From positions 32,001-96,000 of the forward strand of contig CAXXJS010000031.1 of assembly GCA_963662665.2 (NCBI GenBank): a DNA stretch of 64,000 nt, in the 5' to 3' direction. The notes under the pieces were generated by a model. It was not told the origin of the DNA, searched no databases, and was given only the letters and a program-made list of their open reading frames with translations. Of the stretch, positions 273 to 52,672 are shown piece after piece. The stretch comes from Candidatus Latescibacterota bacterium. GTDB lineage: Bacteria > Latescibacterota > UBA2968 > GCA-2709665. Position 1 is the first letter of the stretch. Each line of letters starts with the position of its first letter. Made by a program: the position numbers and the translations under genes.

Positions 273-1476
273 CGCTGACTTGTCCGCCTTAGTGGAGGTA
301 GGCTACCGCGTAGAGATACGTGGAGCCTACCTTCTGGTGAAGGGGATTCCGTACGTAAAACAAGACGGTAACATTGCTACCGGAACCTTAGTTGCAGGTC
401 TGGAGCTTGCTGGCGACCAGACTAGACCTCCCGGGGACCATACTGTCTGGTGGGCCGGTGAAACACCACACCGGTGTTCGGGAGATAGCATGGAGCAGTA
501 CTTGAGCTGTGGACACTGGCCATCTGGGCACGACTTGGGCGAAGGGATCACAGTTTACATGCGATGGTCGCGGAAACCAAGGAGTGCTGGTGGCAGCCGT
601 GGTTACAGCGACAACCAAGAAAAAATAGAAACTTACGTCGAGGAAGTCGGCGGCGAAGCCGAAGCGAAACGACCAGGAATATTGGAGGCTGCAAAGGCAG
701 GCGGCAAACCAGAGATTGCAGCAACGACACGGTTCAAATACATCAATACAAACTTGTATCGGAACGGGACAAAAGCAATAGAACAGCGAATAGCGGAAGA
801 GGTAGTGGCGGTTGTCGGTGTAGGAGGAAGCGGGTCTTACCTTGTCGATATTTTAGCCAAGACGGACATAAAGGAATTACACCTTATTGACGACGATGTA
901 ATGGAACAGCACAACGCGTTTAGAATTGCAGGAGCGGCATCGATACAGGAACTCGGAGTCGGAAAGAGCAAAGTTGAATGGCATCAAGAACGATATGCGG
1001 CCGTGAGGGAAGAAGGGGTTTACGTGCATAAACGGCGGCTAGATGTGGAGACTCTGGACGAATTGGAAAGGTTCACCACAGTGTTCATAGCAGTCGACAA
1101 ATTGGACACGAGAAGGAAGATTCAACAAAAATGCAATGAGCTAGGCGTGTCTCATATTAGCGTTGGAATAGGGATGGATATAGAGGGCGAAAATGACGAC
1201 GAAATAGGTGGAATGGTTAAGATAGAAACTCGGCACAAGGCATTCGCGGACATGACGACTTGCGCAAGCGACAAGAATCCAGGAGAAGAAGACGTGGCAA
1301 ACATATACGGGAACATTCAGACTGCCGAACTAAACATGCTTGGTGCCGCACTCGCGATCACAGAGTGGAAGGCCAGCAAGCGCATCTATCGAAATGAAAG
1401 GGAAAGTGGGATCGAAAGCGTGATATATTCAGTAAGCACTGGACGTATATTGCAGACACAAGAGGGACGGAATTGA
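247..1476 (+). CDS. ThiF/E1-family adenylyltransferase with N-terminal E2-like (DUF6791-like) domain
   Basis: VGVGGSGS nucleotide-binding loop, DDD...HNAFR, FIAVD, NIQTAELN; ~170-aa N-terminal extra domain (YLLVKGIPYV...SRKP...Y...EKIETY); ATG at 247. Confidence 0.85.
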   Translation: MSNSLISRNADLSALVEVGYRVEIRGAYLLVKGIPYVKQDGNIATGTLVAGLELAGDQTRPPGDHTVWWAGETPHRCSGDSMEQYLSCGHWPSGHDLGEGITVYMRWSRKPRSAGGSRGYSDNQEKIETYVEEVGGEAEAKRPGILEAAKAGGKPEIAATTRFKYINTNLYRNGTKAIEQRIAEEVVAVVGVGGSGSYLVDILAKTDIKELHLIDDDVMEQHNAFRIAGAASIQELGVGKSKVEWHQERYAAVREEGVYVHKRRLDVETLDELERFTTVFIAVDKLDTRRKIQQKCNELGVSHISVGIGMDIEGENDDEIGGMVKIETRHKAFADMTTCASDKNPGEEDVANIYGNIQTAELNMLGAALAITEWKASKRIYRNERESGIESVIYSVSTGRILQTQEGRN

Positions 1477-1886
1477 GAATGAGGACGCGCAGATGGCAGG
1501 CACTTTGGGTCGCGGATATGCCACAAGAGATGGAAGAAGGGAAGGTGTATGTTTCGGTAAAACACCGGCTCACGGAACATTTGTGTGCCTGCGGATGTAA
1601 AACGGAGATAAGTCTTCCGCTCGGGCCGAGTGAATGGTGTATCGAATTCGACGGAGATTCAATAAGCATTCGACCATCCGTCGGGAACTGGCGATTGCCT
1701 TGTAGAAGCCATTACATTATCCGACACGGCTTAACTGTGTGGTGCAAGCAGATTTCGATCAAAGAAGAAGAGGCTGGAAGGATACGAGACCGACAGGAAA
1801 AGGAACAAGATATCACCAGGAAACAAATGGAGCGAAGATGGTGGAATCGTATCGCGAGAAGAATAATGCGGAGCATTAAACGGTAA
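1473..1886 (+). CDS. DUF6527-like Cys/His-rich putative metal-binding protein
   Basis: MP..MEEG.VYVS, HLCACGC, W....DG..ISIRPSVGNW..PCRSHY.I; start overlaps the ThiF stop. Confidence 0.8.
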   Translation: MRMRTRRWQALWVADMPQEMEEGKVYVSVKHRLTEHLCACGCKTEISLPLGPSEWCIEFDGDSISIRPSVGNWRLPCRSHYIIRHGLTVWCKQISIKEEEAGRIRDRQEKEQDITRKQMERRWWNRIARRIMRSIKR

Positions 1887-1917
1887 CCGGTCTTGCAACT
1901 ACAGGACTCCAAAAAAC

Positions 1918-1960
1918 GCCCAACGGTTTGTCTCTGTCCGTTGGGCTTCTTTCTGTTTTT
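1918..1960 (+). terminator. Putative intrinsic terminator of the Ubl operon
   Basis: GCCCAACGG-N11-CCGTTGGGC followed by a T-rich tract. Confidence 0.6.
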
Positions 1961-2047
1961 CGAGTCAGTTTGGCGAGATGTAAGGATCGGCGCCAGGTTA
2001 CTTGATCCCTGGCGAGAGGTCTCCGATGTCCGAACGTCTCCCCGATC

Positions 2048-2425
2048 TCATGCCCGAAAGGTTCTCAGGTCGAGTTCACCGATCGCGCGGTAGTGTTTTC
2101 CGTTGGCCGTGCAAAGTGCCATGTGATGTTCGACGGCGGTTGCCGCGATCAGGGCATCCGCCAGCGAGAGTGCCGTCTTGAGAGTAAATTCTTCCATATA
2201 CACGGATGCTCTGTGTCCGATGTTTTCAGTGAGGGGCAAGGTCTGAAAAGCGTGATCTTTGAGGAAATACTTGATTTCCCTTAATTCCTGCCGGCTTCTC
2301 GCACCCCGGATCAACTCCGCGTACGTAACGAGCGATACCCGGCGTTCATTTTGCTCTTCAACATGCTGCGCTGCCCCTGGATGGCCCCTGAAAACCCAGA
2401 TCAATACGTCGGTATCAAAGATCAT
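2048..2425 (-). CDS. vapC: PIN-domain toxin (VapC family)
   Basis: DTDVLI, E(LIRG), DALIAATA, TAN.KHY acidic PIN motifs. Confidence 0.9.
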   Translation of the reverse strand: MIFDTDVLIWVFRGHPGAAQHVEEQNERRVSLVTYAELIRGARSRQELREIKYFLKDHAFQTLPLTENIGHRASVYMEEFTLKTALSLADALIAATAVEHHMALCTANGKHYRAIGELDLRTFRA

Positions 2426-2660
2426 CCAGGCGGCCTTTTCTCAGATTCCGGACGTAAGCGTCCACGTCCGCCATATCTTTCCTGTCTCGCCACATCCCGA
2501 AGGCTGAATGGTCCGTTACTGACTTTTCCGTTCGCTGCCGGCTGGGCGACAGAATCGCCTTCTCCTTGCCTCGATAATAGATGGTGACGGACTCGCAACG
2601 ATCGAGCGCGAGCAAGACGTCTTTCATGCGGCGTCTCAAATCCAGAATGGTTGCCTTCAT
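2415..2660 (-). CDS. vapB: Phd/YefM-type antitoxin
   Basis: MKATILDLRRRMKDVL...V.I.YRGK..A.L.P; AFGMW.DR; overlaps vapC; SD-like AAGGGGG. Confidence 0.85.
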   Translation of the reverse strand: MKATILDLRRRMKDVLLALDRCESVTIYYRGKEKAILSPSRQRTEKSVTDHSAFGMWRDRKDMADVDAYVRNLRKGRLDDL

Positions 2661-10085: not shown

Positions 10086-10244
10086 TTCCCGCAAAGCGCG
10101 CAAACGCCACGCCGCATCCATTTTTGCAAGCTGGGGAACATAGTCGCAGTATCGGGAAACCGCACGACCTTCCCGCGTCGTTGTCGCCGACAGATCACGT
10201 GACAGGACACGAATGCCGTCGCGCAGCACATGTAGGAGGTGTTT

Positions 10245-10550
10245 ATGCCTGCCGCCACAATGCCACCGATTCATCCGGGAGAAATCCTGCTGGAGGAATT
10301 CTTGAATCCTCTGGAAATCAGCCAATATCGACTTGCGAAAGACATTTCTGTTCCGCCTCGCCGAATTAACGAGATTGTGCATGGGAAACGCGCCGTAACG
10401 CCAGACACCGCGCTGCGTCTGGCGCGTTTTTTCGGTACCACCGGTCAATTCTGGCTCAATCTTCAATCCCGCTACGAACTGGAGTTGGAACGAGACCGAC
10501 TTGGCGAACGATTGCAGGCCGAAGTGCGGATCCTTGAGCGCGTTGAATAA
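10245..10550 (+). CDS. higA: HigA-family antitoxin (orphan)
   Basis: PPIHPGEIL.EEFL.P...SQY.LA...P.RINEI..GKR.VT.DTALRL.RFFG....FWLNLQ; SD GGAGG. Confidence 0.92.
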   Translation: MPAATMPPIHPGEILLEEFLNPLEISQYRLAKDISVPPRRINEIVHGKRAVTPDTALRLARFFGTTGQFWLNLQSRYELELERDRLGERLQAEVRILERVE

Positions 10551-47487: not shown

Positions 47488-48060
47488 TCACGCGCCCGCG
47501 CCCGGATCGTAGACGAAGTTATTTTCGGCGTCGGTCAGCAGGGGGAGTTCGAGGTCCTTCCCTGATAGTATCGGATTGGAAACCGGCCAGTCGATGCCGA
47601 TGGCCGGATCGTCCCAGACAATGCCACGGTCGAGATCCGGCGCGAATTCGGCGGTGACCTTGTATACGAATTCGGCCTCGTCGCTCAACACGCAGAACCC
47701 GTGCGCAAAACCCTCGGGAACGTAGAACATCCTGTGATTCGCTTCAGACAGCACAACACCCTCCCACTGCCCGAAGGTGGGTGCGTTCTTCCGGATATCC
47801 ACGGCCACGTCGAACACCTCGCCCTTGACAACCCTCACCAGCTTGGCCTGCGCCCTCGGGTGCAATTGATAGTGTAACCCCCTCAGGACGTCCCCGACCG
47901 AATGGGAGTGGATATCCTGTACGAACCCGACGGAGATTCCGTTCGCCTCGAAATCGGATTTCCTGTAGGATTCCATCAGAAAGCCGCGGTTGTCTTCAAA
48001 AACCCGGGGCTCGACCAGAATGAGTCCGGGAATTTTCAAGCCTTCAAACCGGAATGGCAT
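47488..48060 (-). CDS. rfbC: dTDP-4-dehydrorhamnose 3,5-epimerase
   Basis: D.RG.L.E, FVQD.HS.S...VLRGLHYQ, DVAVDIR, GFAHGF. Confidence 0.95.
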   Translation of the reverse strand: MPFRFEGLKIPGLILVEPRVFEDNRGFLMESYRKSDFEANGISVGFVQDIHSHSVGDVLRGLHYQLHPRAQAKLVRVVKGEVFDVAVDIRKNAPTFGQWEGVVLSEANHRMFYVPEGFAHGFCVLSDEAEFVYKVTAEFAPDLDRGIVWDDPAIGIDWPVSNPILSGKDLELPLLTDAENNFVYDPGAGA

Positions 48061-48103
48061 CCAACTTCCTTTCCCGGGGAAGTACGTACGACGCGGATCA
48101 CGA

Positions 48104-49132
48104 CTATCCGGACGACACCTGCTTCCAGCCTTCCTCGTCCACGTCCAGGCGTTTCAGCAGGGGTTCCCACCAGTTGCGATTGTCGGCGTACCAGCGTACG
48201 GTTTCCTCATACCCGTGTTCAAAAGAAATCTCGGGACGCCAGCCGAGTTCGGTACGTATCTTATTCGAATTCAGAAGGTATCTGCGGTCGTGTCCGGGGC
48301 GGTCGGGAACGTAGACCTTGTACGACCCGTCCATCGCCAGTACATTCAGAATTGTGTCCGCGATCGTCTCAACGTCCACCTCAACGCCGCTCCCGACGTT
48401 GTACGTTTCCCCGATCTTTCCATGTTTCAGGATCAGGTCGATCGCCCGGCAGTGGTCCTCCACGTGCAGCCACTCCCGTTTGTTCCGGCTGCTCCGGTAG
48501 AGCGTCATCTTCTTTCCGTTCAAGACCTGTGTGACGAACAGGGGAATTACCTTTTCCGGGAATTGATACGGCCCGTAGTTGTTCGCGCAATTGGAAATCG
48601 TAACCGGCAGCCCGAACGTGAGATGGTACGCCCGGACCGCCAGGTCGGCCGCCGCCTTGGATGCATTGTACGGCGTACGCGGCTGATAGGGGTCATCCTC
48701 GGAAAAGCTCGCTTCCGAATCCAGCGGCAGGTCCCCGTAGACCTCGCAGGTTGAGATATGGTGTACCCTGGGCACGCCGGCATCGTGCGCAGCCTGCAGG
48801 AGACGCTGAGTCCCAAGCACGTTGGTCTCGAAGAAGACGTCGGGATTGACCACCGCGCGGCTGTTGTGCGACTCGGCGGCGAAGTTCACGACATAATCCG
48901 GCCGGTGCCGTTCGAAGAGACCTCGAACCAACTCAAAGTCGCCGATATCACCTTGAACAAACTCGTACCTGCCGGCACAGGTTGCGACCACGTCGGCCAG
49001 GTTCTCCGGATTACCCGCATACGTGAGCAGATCGTAGTTGATTACGCTGTCGTCCGGGTATCTGGACAGCCAGTACCGGACAAAGTTCGATCCGATGAAC
49101 CCCGCTCCTCCCGTCACGAATATCCCGCCCAT
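48104..49132 (-). CDS. rfbB: dTDP-glucose 4,6-dehydratase
   Basis: TGGAGFIGSNF, LTYAGN, FAAESH, PYNASK, NNYGPYQFPEK, DRPGHDRRY. Confidence 0.93.
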   Translation of the reverse strand: MGGIFVTGGAGFIGSNFVRYWLSRYPDDSVINYDLLTYAGNPENLADVVATCAGRYEFVQGDIGDFELVRGLFERHRPDYVVNFAAESHNSRAVVNPDVFFETNVLGTQRLLQAAHDAGVPRVHHISTCEVYGDLPLDSEASFSEDDPYQPRTPYNASKAAADLAVRAYHLTFGLPVTISNCANNYGPYQFPEKVIPLFVTQVLNGKKMTLYRSSRNKREWLHVEDHCRAIDLILKHGKIGETYNVGSGVEVDVETIADTILNVLAMDGSYKVYVPDRPGHDRRYLLNSNKIRTELGWRPEISFEHGYEETVRWYADNRNWWEPLLKRLDVDEEGWKQVSSG

Positions 49133-49141
49133 AGTGGTCCC

Positions 49142-50119
49142 CTATAAAAACAAAAACCCCGTTGACGCCAGGTAAGCTCCGTAAATCGCGAGCAGCACGA
49201 ATCCCTCGATCCGGGTCAGACGGTGGCCCGTGCGCATCATGAAAAGCATCGCAAAAACGATCACCAGCATCGCTGGAAATGAAAAGTGGATTACTTTTTG
49301 CGTCACCACGAGTGGATTGACCACGGCGGATGCACCGGCGATCCAGCAGATATTCAGGATATCGGCGCCCAGGATATTCCCGACCACGATCTCACCGTGT
49401 CCTCTCCTGGCGGCCGTCACCCCGGTTGCGATCTCCGGCAAGGACGTGCCGATGGCAATCACCGTAAGCGCAATCACCGCTTCGCTGACGTCCAATGCCT
49501 TGGCGATGACCACGGCGGATTCCACGATAAAATGACTGGATATCAGTACCCCGACCAGTCCAACGCAGAACCAGAGCATCAATGTCCCGAGAGCTCGTCC
49601 CTCAATGGAAGCCTCGATCTCCTTCAGTTCCTCCATCCGATTCCCCTCGGCCTCGGATGAACGACGGCGTGTCACGTAGGTAAAGACCGTGTATGCCACG
49701 AAGAGGAGGAGCAGTACGCCGCCCTCGATCCGATCCAGCGTGCCGTCGAACGCCATCGCGTAAGCCGCCAGATCCACGACAATCAGAAAGATCCCTGTCG
49801 TCCGCAGCAGGTATGGGTTGATGAGGATCGGGGTGCCCACCACAAGCACACCCAGCGCCAGAGCGACGCCGTCGTCCACAATCACCGACCCGATGGCATT
49901 GCCCAGCGCCATTTCCGGATGCCCTTCGAGAGCGGCCAGTACGGATACGGCCAGTTCCGGCGAGGTTGTCGCCAGGCTCACCAGTACGATACCGATCAGC
50001 ATTTTCGGCACGTTCAGGTATTCGGCAATCCCAACAGCACCGTCCACAAACCACGAAGCGCACTTCGCAAACACCACGAAACACAACGCCAGAACGCCTA
50101 CCGCAACCGGTATACCCAT
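49142..50119 (-). CDS. Calcium/sodium antiporter (CaCA, YrbG-like)
   Basis: Two alpha-repeats ATTSPEL...GNAIGS and GTSLPE...GNILGA. Confidence 0.9.
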   Translation of the reverse strand: MGIPVAVGVLALCFVVFAKCASWFVDGAVGIAEYLNVPKMLIGIVLVSLATTSPELAVSVLAALEGHPEMALGNAIGSVIVDDGVALALGVLVVGTPILINPYLLRTTGIFLIVVDLAAYAMAFDGTLDRIEGGVLLLLFVAYTVFTYVTRRRSSEAEGNRMEELKEIEASIEGRALGTLMLWFCVGLVGVLISSHFIVESAVVIAKALDVSEAVIALTVIAIGTSLPEIATGVTAARRGHGEIVVGNILGADILNICWIAGASAVVNPLVVTQKVIHFSFPAMLVIVFAMLFMMRTGHRLTRIEGFVLLAIYGAYLASTGFLFL

Positions 50120-50206
50120 AAACAACAAGCCTTTGTCAATTCACGTAGCAACTGGACAACGATCCCGTACGGCAGCGTGTCGGGCCTGACTTCCGAACCC
50201 CCCGGC

Positions 50207-52528
50207 TCATCGGCCGGCGACACGCGCCACCCAGATGCTGAATTCGTAGAGCAGCACCAGCGGCAGCGCCATCATCAGCTGGGAGATCGGATCGGGCGGC
50301 GTGAGCAGAGCCGCCAGAACAAAACCGATCACCACCGCATAACGCCGGCCCCACCGCATCCGGTCTGCGGTCAACAGACCGATCCGGCTCAGGAAAAAGG
50401 CAGCCACCGGAAGTTCGAAGACAACGCCGAAGGCCACCAGCAGTCTCAGAACAAAGCCGGTGTAGTAACCGATATCGAACTGGGGGTCTACGCCGGTCCC
50501 TTCGCCAATCAGGATGAGGAACCGAAACGACAGGGGCACCACGCTGAAATAAGCAAGGGCCCCGCCCAGGACAAAACAGACCGACGATGAAAAAACAATA
50601 AAAGATACGTACCGCCGCTCGGTTGTCAACAGACCCGGAGCGACGAAGATCCACAATTGATACAGGAGAAACGGCAACGCCAGGATCGCACCGCCTACCA
50701 GGGCAATCTGGAATTTGACGAGAAACATCCCCATCGGCTTCAGATAAATAAGCTTGACCGGCGGCTCAACGGGGGCTACGCCCAACAGCTTCAGGAAGGG
50801 GGTCGCTTCCCGCACCGGCAGGACGAGCCACCCCAGAATCGCGTCCGAAAAAATCCCGCAGATGATGGCTCCAACCGTGAGAGCCGCCAGACCCTTCAAT
50901 AAGCGCCAGCGGAGTTCCTCCAGGTGATCCAGAAAGGGCATCGCTTTGTCTTCGGCGCCCGAGGACGGTTCAGGCGCGTGTTCTGCAGACGTGCCGGAGT
51001 CGGGGGGCAGAATGGAATGGTCTGCATCCGCCGGGTGCCGGAGGAAGGCCATCGCCACCAGAATCGCGCCCGCAATCAGGCACAACTGTGAGAACAGATC
51101 CCCGTACCTGGTATAAAACGTCCTTGCGCTCCGTGGCGACACCCCCTTCGTCAACACGGCCGGATGGAATATTCCCGTTGTTCCCGACTTCCTTCCGTAT
51201 GGGTCGATGAACGTGGACACACCCGTATTCGCGCAGCGCACCACGGCACGCCGGTTCTCAATGGCGCGAAACACCGCCGACTCGGCATGCTGATAGGGTC
51301 CGGAAGTACGACCGAACCAGCCGTCATTGGTAATGACGACCAGAAACTCTGCGCCCCGGTCCACAAATGACCGGACAAATCCCGGAAAGACCGAATCGTA
51401 GCAGATCAGTGCGGAGAACCGGGCCTCGGGGCCGCTGAATACCGTCCGCGCCTCGCCGGAATCCCAGTTACCCCCCACGAACCCGCCGCCCGTGAACCTG
51501 ATCTTCCGCAGAAAAGGCAGCAACTCCGGGAAGGGCGCCCGTTCGCCGAACGGCACCAGGCGAGTTTTATCGTAGAATCCCGTGATCCCTTTCCGGGGCA
51601 CAAACAGAAACGAGGAGTTGTATACCTTTACCGGGTCGCCGGTAACAAGCCGGTACGCGCCCGTATAGAGGTAGATGTCCAGCGAGTCCACCATCGCCTG
51701 CACGCGTTCTCGATGGTGCCTGTACAATTCCCCTTTCATATAGCCGACCGCCGTCTCGGGCCACACCACAAGCTTCGCCCCCTGCATCGCGGCTTCAACG
51801 GTCATTGGCTTCAACTTACCGAAATTGTAATCGAATCCCCGGTATTCCTTGGCAACAGGCGGCATATCCGGCTGGACCACACCTACAGGCACGGCCCGGT
51901 CGTCCGGATCGTGTTTCAGCGTAAAATACCCGTTTGCCGCCGGTCCCGCAAAGAGGGCCGCCAGCCCGGCGGCCCATGTCCAGCGGCGCGCTTCGTACCG
52001 CCAAAGCATCAGTATGCTCAGATTGACCACCACAATCCAGAATGATACGCCATATACCCCCGTCACGTCCGCATACTGGATCAGCCACAGATAGCCCGTC
52101 TGCGAGTTTCCAAGAACCACCCACGGAAAACCCATATCTCCCAATGAATTGAAATACTCCAACCCGACCCACAGAAAGGGAGCGCTCCACATGCCCGCGG
52201 CGCCGAACCGCCCCACGACGCGGGAATACGTCCACAAGAACAGCCCGCGGAACAGGGACATGTAAAAAACCGCACCGGCCATGCCGGGCGGCGTGATCCA
52301 GCCGATCCAGTAAAGTGTCGTTCCGTAGAAGAATAACCCCTGAATGAATCCCGCGCCAAAGGCCGCACGGCCGCGAAGGCGTTCCGCCGAAATCAGCAGC
52401 GGGATCAGCGCAATGTAAGACAGGAATCCCAGGGGCAGGGGTGGAAATGCGGCGCCCAGGACAAGGCCCGAAACCGCCGGAAACACAACCATCCATTTCC
52501 AGTCTGTGCCCTGCCGTAACTCCGTCAT
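50207..52528 (-). CDS. lnt-tatC: Apolipoprotein N-acyltransferase (Lnt) fused to twin-arginine translocase subunit TatC
   Basis: Lnt: GFPW..LG.SQ, WPE, YNS, K..LVPFGE, ICYD, TNDGWFG, R.ANTG.S; TatC from 50941: MPFLDHLEELR.R, YQ.W.F.APGL...E, FELP, LTPPD..SQ, LYE; no stop between them. Confidence 0.9.
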   Translation of the reverse strand: MTELRQGTDWKWMVVFPAVSGLVLGAAFPPLPLGFLSYIALIPLLISAERLRGRAAFGAGFIQGLFFYGTTLYWIGWITPPGMAGAVFYMSLFRGLFLWTYSRVVGRFGAAGMWSAPFLWVGLEYFNSLGDMGFPWVVLGNSQTGYLWLIQYADVTGVYGVSFWIVVVNLSILMLWRYEARRWTWAAGLAALFAGPAANGYFTLKHDPDDRAVPVGVVQPDMPPVAKEYRGFDYNFGKLKPMTVEAAMQGAKLVVWPETAVGYMKGELYRHHRERVQAMVDSLDIYLYTGAYRLVTGDPVKVYNSSFLFVPRKGITGFYDKTRLVPFGERAPFPELLPFLRKIRFTGGGFVGGNWDSGEARTVFSGPEARFSALICYDSVFPGFVRSFVDRGAEFLVVITNDGWFGRTSGPYQHAESAVFRAIENRRAVVRCANTGVSTFIDPYGRKSGTTGIFHPAVLTKGVSPRSARTFYTRYGDLFSQLCLIAGAILVAMAFLRHPADADHSILPPDSGTSAEHAPEPSSGAEDKAMPFLDHLEELRWRLLKGLAALTVGAIICGIFSDAILGWLVLPVREATPFLKLLGVAPVEPPVKLIYLKPMGMFLVKFQIALVGGAILALPFLLYQLWIFVAPGLLTTERRYVSFIVFSSSVCFVLGGALAYFSVVPLSFRFLILIGEGTGVDPQFDIGYYTGFVLRLLVAFGVVFELPVAAFFLSRIGLLTADRMRWGRRYAVVIGFVLAALLTPPDPISQLMMALPLVLLYEFSIWVARVAGR

Positions 52529-52672
52529 TATTCAGGCACCTCCAAACCCCTCTGCAGGATCCTGTCCGGCCGCGCCGCTGCGCTTCAGCGTGGGGACAGA
52601 AAAACCGGTTGGGCGCAAGCAGTGAGTCCCGCCAACCGGTCTGGTTGAACCCCACCCCGGAAACCGGCTTAG

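Follow-up and report, generated by a model that had tools for sequence, protein, structure and literature searches.

An in-frame fusion of apolipoprotein N-acyltransferase and the Tat translocase core TatC in a class of Candidatus Latescibacterota

Lipoprotein N-acyltransferase (Lnt) and TatC, the core of the twin-arginine translocation (Tat) system, are textbook proteins of envelope biogenesis that have been studied as separate entities only. In a 64,000-nucleotide stretch of a Candidatus Latescibacterota genome (positions 32,001 to 96,000 of contig CAXXJS010000031.1, assembly GCA_963662665.2; hereafter the window), both are encoded by a single open reading frame (ORF) on the minus strand at 50207..52528, comprising 773 codons plus a stop and starting with ATG. 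The gene fusion is real: it is in frame, it is conserved, and it is not an artefact. The reading preferred here, at a probability of about 0.68, is that the fusion arose from an overlapping or abutting lnt-tatC pair and is made as one chain in which each half keeps its ordinary, separate job. Most likely, an lnt-tatC pair that was already coupled in translation has become frozen as one gene, neighbours having merged rather than two jobs having been mechanically linked. The fusion is not required, as close relatives manage with two genes.

Translation from the ATG at 52528 would yield one inner-membrane polypeptide of 14 helices. Its Lnt half would consist of a membrane domain and a periplasmic nitrilase-like domain with a Glu-Lys-Cys triad and, judging by homology, would move an acyl chain of a phospholipid onto the diacylglyceryl-cysteine amino group of an apolipoprotein. 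The last Lnt helix would return the chain to the cytoplasm, where an acidic linker of ~33 residues, probably disordered, would lead into a six-helix TatC. This second half would serve as the receptor for twin-arginine signals, partnered by a single TatA encoded elsewhere. Fusion would fix the co-expression of the two halves at 1:1 and keep both in one membrane patch.

The 773-aa ORF contains no internal stop, and both halves are complete by profile matching, as a preliminary description of the window had proposed from the letters alone. The Lnt part (residues 1-496; 51041..52528, minus strand like all parts of the ORF) has seven predicted helices, the nitrilase-like domain and an eighth helix, and it matches the NCBIfam lnt model TIGR00546 with 319.7 bits (cut-off 132.9) over model positions 8-394 of 395. 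Within it, the LNT_N membrane domain (PF20154; residues 20-170, 52019..52471; 2.2e-31) and the CN_hydrolase, or nitrilase-like, domain (PF00795; residues 216-448, 51185..51883; 8e-30) both exceed the curated Pfam cut-offs. The TatC part (residues 530-773; 50210..50941) begins with the conserved MPFLDHLEELR and matches Pfam TatC (PF00902) with residues 534-756 over profile positions 1-208 of 208 (1e-66; 225.1 bits against a cut-off of 25.1), as well as NCBIfam tatC TIGR00945 (196.6 bits; cut-off 132.7). Between the halves lies an acidic, Pro/Ser-rich linker, RHPADADHSILPPDSGTSAEHAPEPSSGAEDKA, whose 33 residues (497-529; 50942..51040) agree with the length of about 30 first estimated; the tryptic peptide at the junction of linker and TatC would be AMPFLDHLEELR. 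Upstream of the ORF, a Shine-Dalgarno (SD)-like GGAGG at 52539..52543 occupies -15..-11, 10 nt 5' of the ATG.

The motifs WPE, K..LVPFGE, ICY, LDHLEELR, APGL..E, FELP and TPPD can all be read in the translation. Residues E258 (51755-51757), K321 (51566-51568) and C376 (51401-51403) of the CN_hydrolase domain, which we take to be the Glu-Lys-Cys triad from the motifs WPE, K..VPFGE and ICY/ICF, are invariant in two alignments of fused proteins (17/17 and 89/89). Many TatC positions are likewise invariant in 89/89 fused proteins, E637 of APGL..E among them, and E538 of HLEELR is at least 90% conserved; from their motifs, these two are presumably the acidic residues of the twin-arginine binding site, equivalent to E. 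coli E15 and E103. A genome-wide profile search found no other TatC match and no other true Lnt match. With the sole tatC and the sole true lnt of the genome in this one ORF, both halves are expected to function.

The simplest dismissal of such an ORF would be that it is an artefact or a decaying gene, that is, a mistake of sequencing or assembly, or a chance read-through of recent date in one genome, and the source is indeed a draft metagenome-assembled genome (MAG) of 66 contigs and 92% completeness. Set against this, every genome of the window's order (families f1 and f2; 53 of 53) carries TatC within a fusion-length open frame, and many of these genomes are single-contig assemblies. The frames measure 764-841 aa in 51 genomes, and the other two (506 and 713 aa) are cut by contig ends; for 12 loci retrieved from the order, and for the window, hidden Markov models (HMMs) confirmed Lnt inside the frame. 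The close relatives thus do not all encode two separate ORFs, a pattern which the preliminary description had named, along with an indel or stop in the reads over the linker, as grounds for abandoning the fusion. No such lesion is seen either: across the gene, linker included, contigs assembled from four runs (four studies) contain no inserted or deleted letter and no stop. Two of the four match the window letter for letter and are possibly its source, and the other two differ from it by 14 substitutions each, with no gaps. Of the 13 and 14 substitutions with a listed position, 9 and 10 leave the amino acid unchanged; the linker has none, and no stop results from any. Further, 118 of the best 120 database clusters carry a TatC domain (PF00902) together with CN_hydrolase, three of these 118 being short (522-606 aa) and lacking LNT_N, and the full three-domain clusters among the best 120 extend down to about 35-40% identity. 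The order-wide architecture, the database clusters, the indel-free independent contigs and their mostly synonymous variants refute the artefact and pseudogene readings; with the catalytic residues invariant as well, an error or decay is scarcely credible.

The complete fusion is recorded in MAGs that carry the label Candidatus Latescibacterota or Gemmatimonadota, and the sources that name the fused proteins mostly call them 'apolipoprotein N-acyltransferase'. Their distribution was followed in a phylum sample of 168 genomes, 162 of which have TatC. Among the matches listed in the frame-length survey of this sample, outside which 16 TatC matches lie, fusion-length TatC frames are confined to the window's class. 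Within the class, a third family (f3) has no fusion-length frame in its three genomes, and a fourth (f4) has one in 31 of its 73 TatC-bearing genomes. The long frames of f4 fall in three genera, g25 (24 long, 1 cut and 4 short), g30 (2/2 long) and g31 (5 long, 3 short and 2 partial), and the frames of the remaining 32 genomes measure 299-492 aa. Outside the class, the TatC frames among the matches listed measure 250-464 aa, save two of 553 and 653 aa. These two, from families f12 and f5 (genomes G156 and G133), were considered as further Lnt fusions and rejected, as neither has Lnt inside. A HMMER scan of 1.84 billion representative proteins returned, among its best 150 matches, two that match both halves, one per fused group, and 148 that match Lnt only; as representatives were scanned, a cluster with an unfused representative could conceal fused members. 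The ESM Atlas holds one named cluster with the fusion architecture, with 53 members and Latescibacterota as its commonest phylum. Judged from these sequence surveys, the architecture appears to be confined to this class of MAGs.

The 553-aa frame (locus G156:C7:5600-9250, frame 496-2154, minus strand) carries TatC at residues 322-531 behind an RnfB-like stretch with FeS and several 4Fe-4S ferredoxin domains, and may be a different TatC fusion. The 653-aa frame (G133:C452:3300-6247, frame 520-2478, minus strand) has TatC at residues 423-632, and its ~420 preceding residues, which have no Pfam match, could be an N-terminal extension or an upstream gene that is in frame by chance. Four long representative proteins match the Lnt part only (P0162, 842 aa; P0183, 826 aa; P0167, 735 aa; P0192, 688 aa) and might be Lnt fused to other partners, Ppm-like as in mycobacteria.

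The origin of the fusion can be read from relatives in which the two genes are separate. In seven of seven frame-separated relatives, lnt lies directly upstream and an ATG in the tatC frame falls -17 to +4 nt from the lnt stop, with an ATGA stop/start overlap in three. The TatC of these relatives carries an acidic tail of 15-40 residues before the conserved MPFLDHLEELR. In the unfused relatives that have both genes in the same frame, exactly one stop stands between lnt and tatC (5/5; TAG in three, TGA in two), and one codon past it there is an in-frame ATG (4/5, e.g. TAG-gcc-ATG) or TTG (1/5). If that stop were lost, exactly the fused gene would result, its linker supplied by the tail of TatC itself, and the linker would correspond by position to the N-terminal acidic tail of the stand-alone protein. 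The ancestor would thus have been an lnt-tatC pair with stop and start overlapping or abutting, the usual sign of translational coupling, and a lost stop or a changed frame would have turned the tail into the linker. In the fetched flanks of 67 Lnt loci outside the class, no tatC was found (0/67), and the linkage is therefore a trait of this class. Some selective tie behind its conservation, such as co-expression, is plausible.

A careful maximum-likelihood (ML) tree was built from 36 Lnt+TatC sequences, leaving out two duplicates of the window (L001, L003), two duplicates of other records (L026, L032) and one locus cut by a contig end (L008). On it, the window's order is represented by 17 fused sequences, which group in a single clade (100/100) with an unfused pair as its sister, and fused and unfused forms interleave in f4. 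The fused/separate label changes at least four times on the ML tree, and a single change suffices in none of 200 bootstrap trees. In one f4 genome (G074:C63:23220-23958), TatC is in two adjoining pieces in separate frames (profile positions 1-77 and 84-208), for which a frameshift or an assembly error is possible.

TatC is generally known to have its N-terminus in the cytoplasm. An AlphaFold2 model of the fusion, built on 89 homologues (mean predicted local distance difference test, pLDDT, 83.9; predicted template modelling score 0.72), places seven helices in the Lnt part, then a domain of mixed alpha/beta structure and one more helix (residues 478-495; 51044..51097), and TatC helices at 532-559, 598-629, 638-675, 686-715, 728-742 and 747-772. 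These six helices, like the alignment with Aquifex TatC described below, are consistent with the TatC fold. Residues 501-527 of the linker have a pLDDT below 50, which suggests that it is probably disordered. A Kyte-Doolittle hydropathy scan resolved only some of the Lnt helices, and the secondary structure of the model was used for topology instead. This helix layout fits the published Lnt structure, which, in the available text of PMC5500888, has eight transmembrane helices with the N- and C-terminus both cytoplasmic. As Lnt is built in this way, the chain should be back in the cytoplasm at the TatC N-terminus: the last Lnt helix is predicted to re-enter on that side, and the preliminary description's view that the two topologies are compatible is upheld. 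A complex prediction of Lnt (1-497) with TatC (526-773) from 89-row alignments, run without controls, gave ipSAE values of 0.00 and 0.00 and counts neither way.

Each half closely resembles its stand-alone counterpart. Residues 25-492 align along the full length of the Lnt structures from E. coli and P. aeruginosa (5N6H, 5XHQ, 5VRG; E ~1e-31), with which the fusion shares the LNT_N and CN_hydrolase domains and the Glu-Lys-Cys triad, and which its predicted layout of seven helices, domain and eighth helix would match; unlike in these enzymes, the Lnt C-terminus is not free and runs through the 33-residue linker into TatC. For TatC, whose structures include those of Aquifex aeolicus (4B4A/4HTS) and E. 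coli (9DZZ), residues 530-772 match the Aquifex protein of 236-249 residues end to end (E ~1e-38), the latter starting with MPLTEHLRELR where the fusion has MPFLDHLEELR. Unlike known TatC, its N-terminus is tethered to an eight-helix enzyme, and its genomic setting differs in that one TatA-family gene and no separate TatB were found. Fusions involving either protein are not without precedent, the haloarchaeal double TatC being another TatC fusion. For Lnt, the preliminary description had rightly named the Lnt-Ppm1 fusion of M. tuberculosis as a comparator. According to the available text of PMC3850990, Rv2051c (Ppm1) joins an Lnt domain and a polyprenol-phosphate-mannose synthase domain in one protein, and its two parts are separate adjoining genes in M. 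smegmatis (MSMEG_3860/3859). Rv2051c resembles the present fusion in being a natural two-domain protein with Lnt at the N-terminus and in its evolutionary route, the merging of neighbour genes in some lineages. It differs in belonging to another phylum and in the nature of the partner, a cytoplasmic glycosyltransferase domain rather than a polytopic translocase subunit.

Three observations weigh against the reading of one chain with two separate jobs. The internal Met (M530; first base of its ATG at 50941) is invariant in 89/89 fused proteins (alignment A2), as would fit an internal start; an SD-like 4-mer precedes this Met in about 4 of about 24 distinct fused loci, as counted by eye; and the order-wide retention of the fusion (53 genomes), with the class-specific linkage (0/67), could mean selection beyond co-expression. 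The first two would suit a gene that yields two proteins, with free TatC made as well or instead, through initiation at M530 or proteolysis of the linker, and the fusion itself transient or minor. The residues before the Met are Glu/Asp/Gly-rich, with purine-rich codons, and a low-confidence, probably disordered linker would be an easy protease target; being cytoplasmic, however, it would lie beyond the reach of signal peptidases, and no processing site is evident in it. As for initiation, the genome has a canonical anti-SD tail, its SD 4-mers peak at -15..-9 before gene starts, and GGAG occurs in 21.7% of gene-start regions vs 4.1% at internal ATGs. Although SD sites are used in this way, no GGAG, GAGG or AGGA stands at -16..-4 of the internal ATG in the window, as first noted, and its genus likewise lacks an SD motif there. 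SD support for an internal TatC start was therefore rejected, with only ~4 of ~24 loci in its favour, which is not proof against such a start. Further, MPFLDHLEELR, including its Met, is conserved across the phylum in fused and unfused proteins alike, the Met is equally conserved in relatives whose TatC clearly starts 14-40 codons upstream, and one fused frame (L036) has ATA (Ile) in its place. For these reasons, the Met is probably a structural residue of the block rather than a retained start. With no SD motif at the internal ATG in the window and genus and a Met that looks structural, single-chain translation is favoured, and the production of free TatC from this gene is considered unlikely. 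As a separate matter, the 39 bases for MPFLDHLEELRWR at 50903-50941 have further matches in the same runs, with 3 mismatches and at a depth of up to 92, on contigs from other organisms of higher abundance; this block is conserved even in its DNA letters.

The third observation bears on function. The preliminary description had proposed that Tat export of folded lipoproteins could be physically coupled to their final acylation. On this view, the tether would place Lnt at the Tat exit so that folded prolipoproteins become N-acylated efficiently there; more broadly, Lnt might be a structural component of the Tat receptor complex in this class. The compatible topology, the class-specific linkage, the signs of ancestral translational coupling in the linked genes and the uniform presence of the fusion across one order are all in keeping with this idea. 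So is the finding of one TatA/B-family gene, from which TatB may be absent in this 92%-complete genome. According to the available text of a 2020 review (PMC8048626), lipoproteins enter by Sec or Tat, and interactions among the modification enzymes are essentially unstudied. Lnt, however, comes in at the final step. Before it, a prolipoprotein exported by Tat has to pass Lgt and LspA, the products of separate, unlinked genes, and fusing the last enzyme is not an obvious way to channel substrates. The linker varies from ~30 to ~90 residues among fused proteins with no conserved sequence, and has low model confidence; moreover, the fused state has been gained or lost between sister species.

Candidate substrates of such a route do exist. 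A crude proteome scan found 11 Tat+lipobox candidates, 3-4 of them convincing, vs none in an interior control of 1478 ORFs. Seven of the 11 were checked for family. Two of these look genuine, a molybdopterin oxidoreductase and a DctP-type binding protein; LpoB and an M48 peptidase probably belong with the Sec lipoproteins, and a further two have no family. The Sec-type lipobox candidates are far more numerous (81 vs 9 in the control). The Tat-lipoprotein signals that the preliminary description had suggested counting thus amount to some 3-11 candidates, greatly outnumbered by the Sec-type class. A plain Tat-signal regular expression gave 125 matches vs 36 in the interior control and has poor specificity; only the Tat+lipobox class is read as above background, and no total number of Tat substrates is claimed. 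On balance, coupling is neither shown nor favoured, given the hypervariable linker, the flips of state and the unlinked Lgt and LspA, and we infer that the two jobs are not mechanistically linked; a functional tie between Tat export and N-acylation is rated quite improbable. A broader proposal, that Lnt and TatC form a physical unit, first coupled and then fused, with Lnt as a scaffold on TatC in place of the missing TatB, or with the last acylation at the Tat exit, where lipoproteins already folded around their cofactors would mature at a membrane site of their own, is very doubtful. One candidate deserves separate mention: the molybdopterin-binding oxidoreductase at G000:C17:21339-22361 has a twin-arginine signal (NRRKFLKAG...) and a lipobox (GVLVGC), scores 22.1 bits with Pfam TAT_signal against a cut-off of 22.7 and is, from these signals, likely a Tat-exported lipoprotein.

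The remaining genes of the two pathways are scattered. The sole TatA/B-family match of the genome (PF02416, 65.1 bits) lies on contig C14 at 10145-10291, in line with the earlier remark that neither tatA nor tatB is in the window; the search for further copies of tatC and lnt found none in the genome. Lgt (contig C10) and LspA (contig C16) both score above cut-offs and are single genes unlinked to the fusion. Since both are encoded, a substrate for Lnt should exist.

No account of an Lnt-TatC fusion, of which the preliminary description knew none either, turned up in full-text literature searches or in the available part of a 2013 TatC survey (PMC3827258), although subscription journals or supplements could hold one; the joining of these two well-known membrane proteins is apparently undescribed so far. 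It matters for annotation: because databases say only 'apolipoprotein N-acyltransferase', annotation pipelines would count tatC as missing from these genomes, and a reconstruction of the pathways of this class would wrongly call the Tat system incomplete. The N-terminus of TatC helps to bind the twin-arginine signal. An eight-helix enzyme at this very end would show that TatC and its oligomers tolerate a large membrane-embedded appendage. The fusion is also a well-sampled example of the passage between overlapping coupled genes and fusion proteins, with at least four changes of state and the intermediates preserved. Finally, it is a natural construct with which one could examine the joint organisation of translocons and lipoprotein-modifying enzymes, a subject described as essentially unstudied in the available text of PMC8048626.

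The neighbours of the fusion gene are a Na/Ca exchanger, two dTDP-sugar enzymes and an aminotransferase, none of which is tied to Tat or lipoproteins. Directly downstream, at 47488-50128 on the minus strand, genes for the Na/Ca exchanger family protein, a dTDP-glucose dehydratase-like protein and a dTDP-sugar epimerase are closely spaced and possibly form one operon with the fusion gene.

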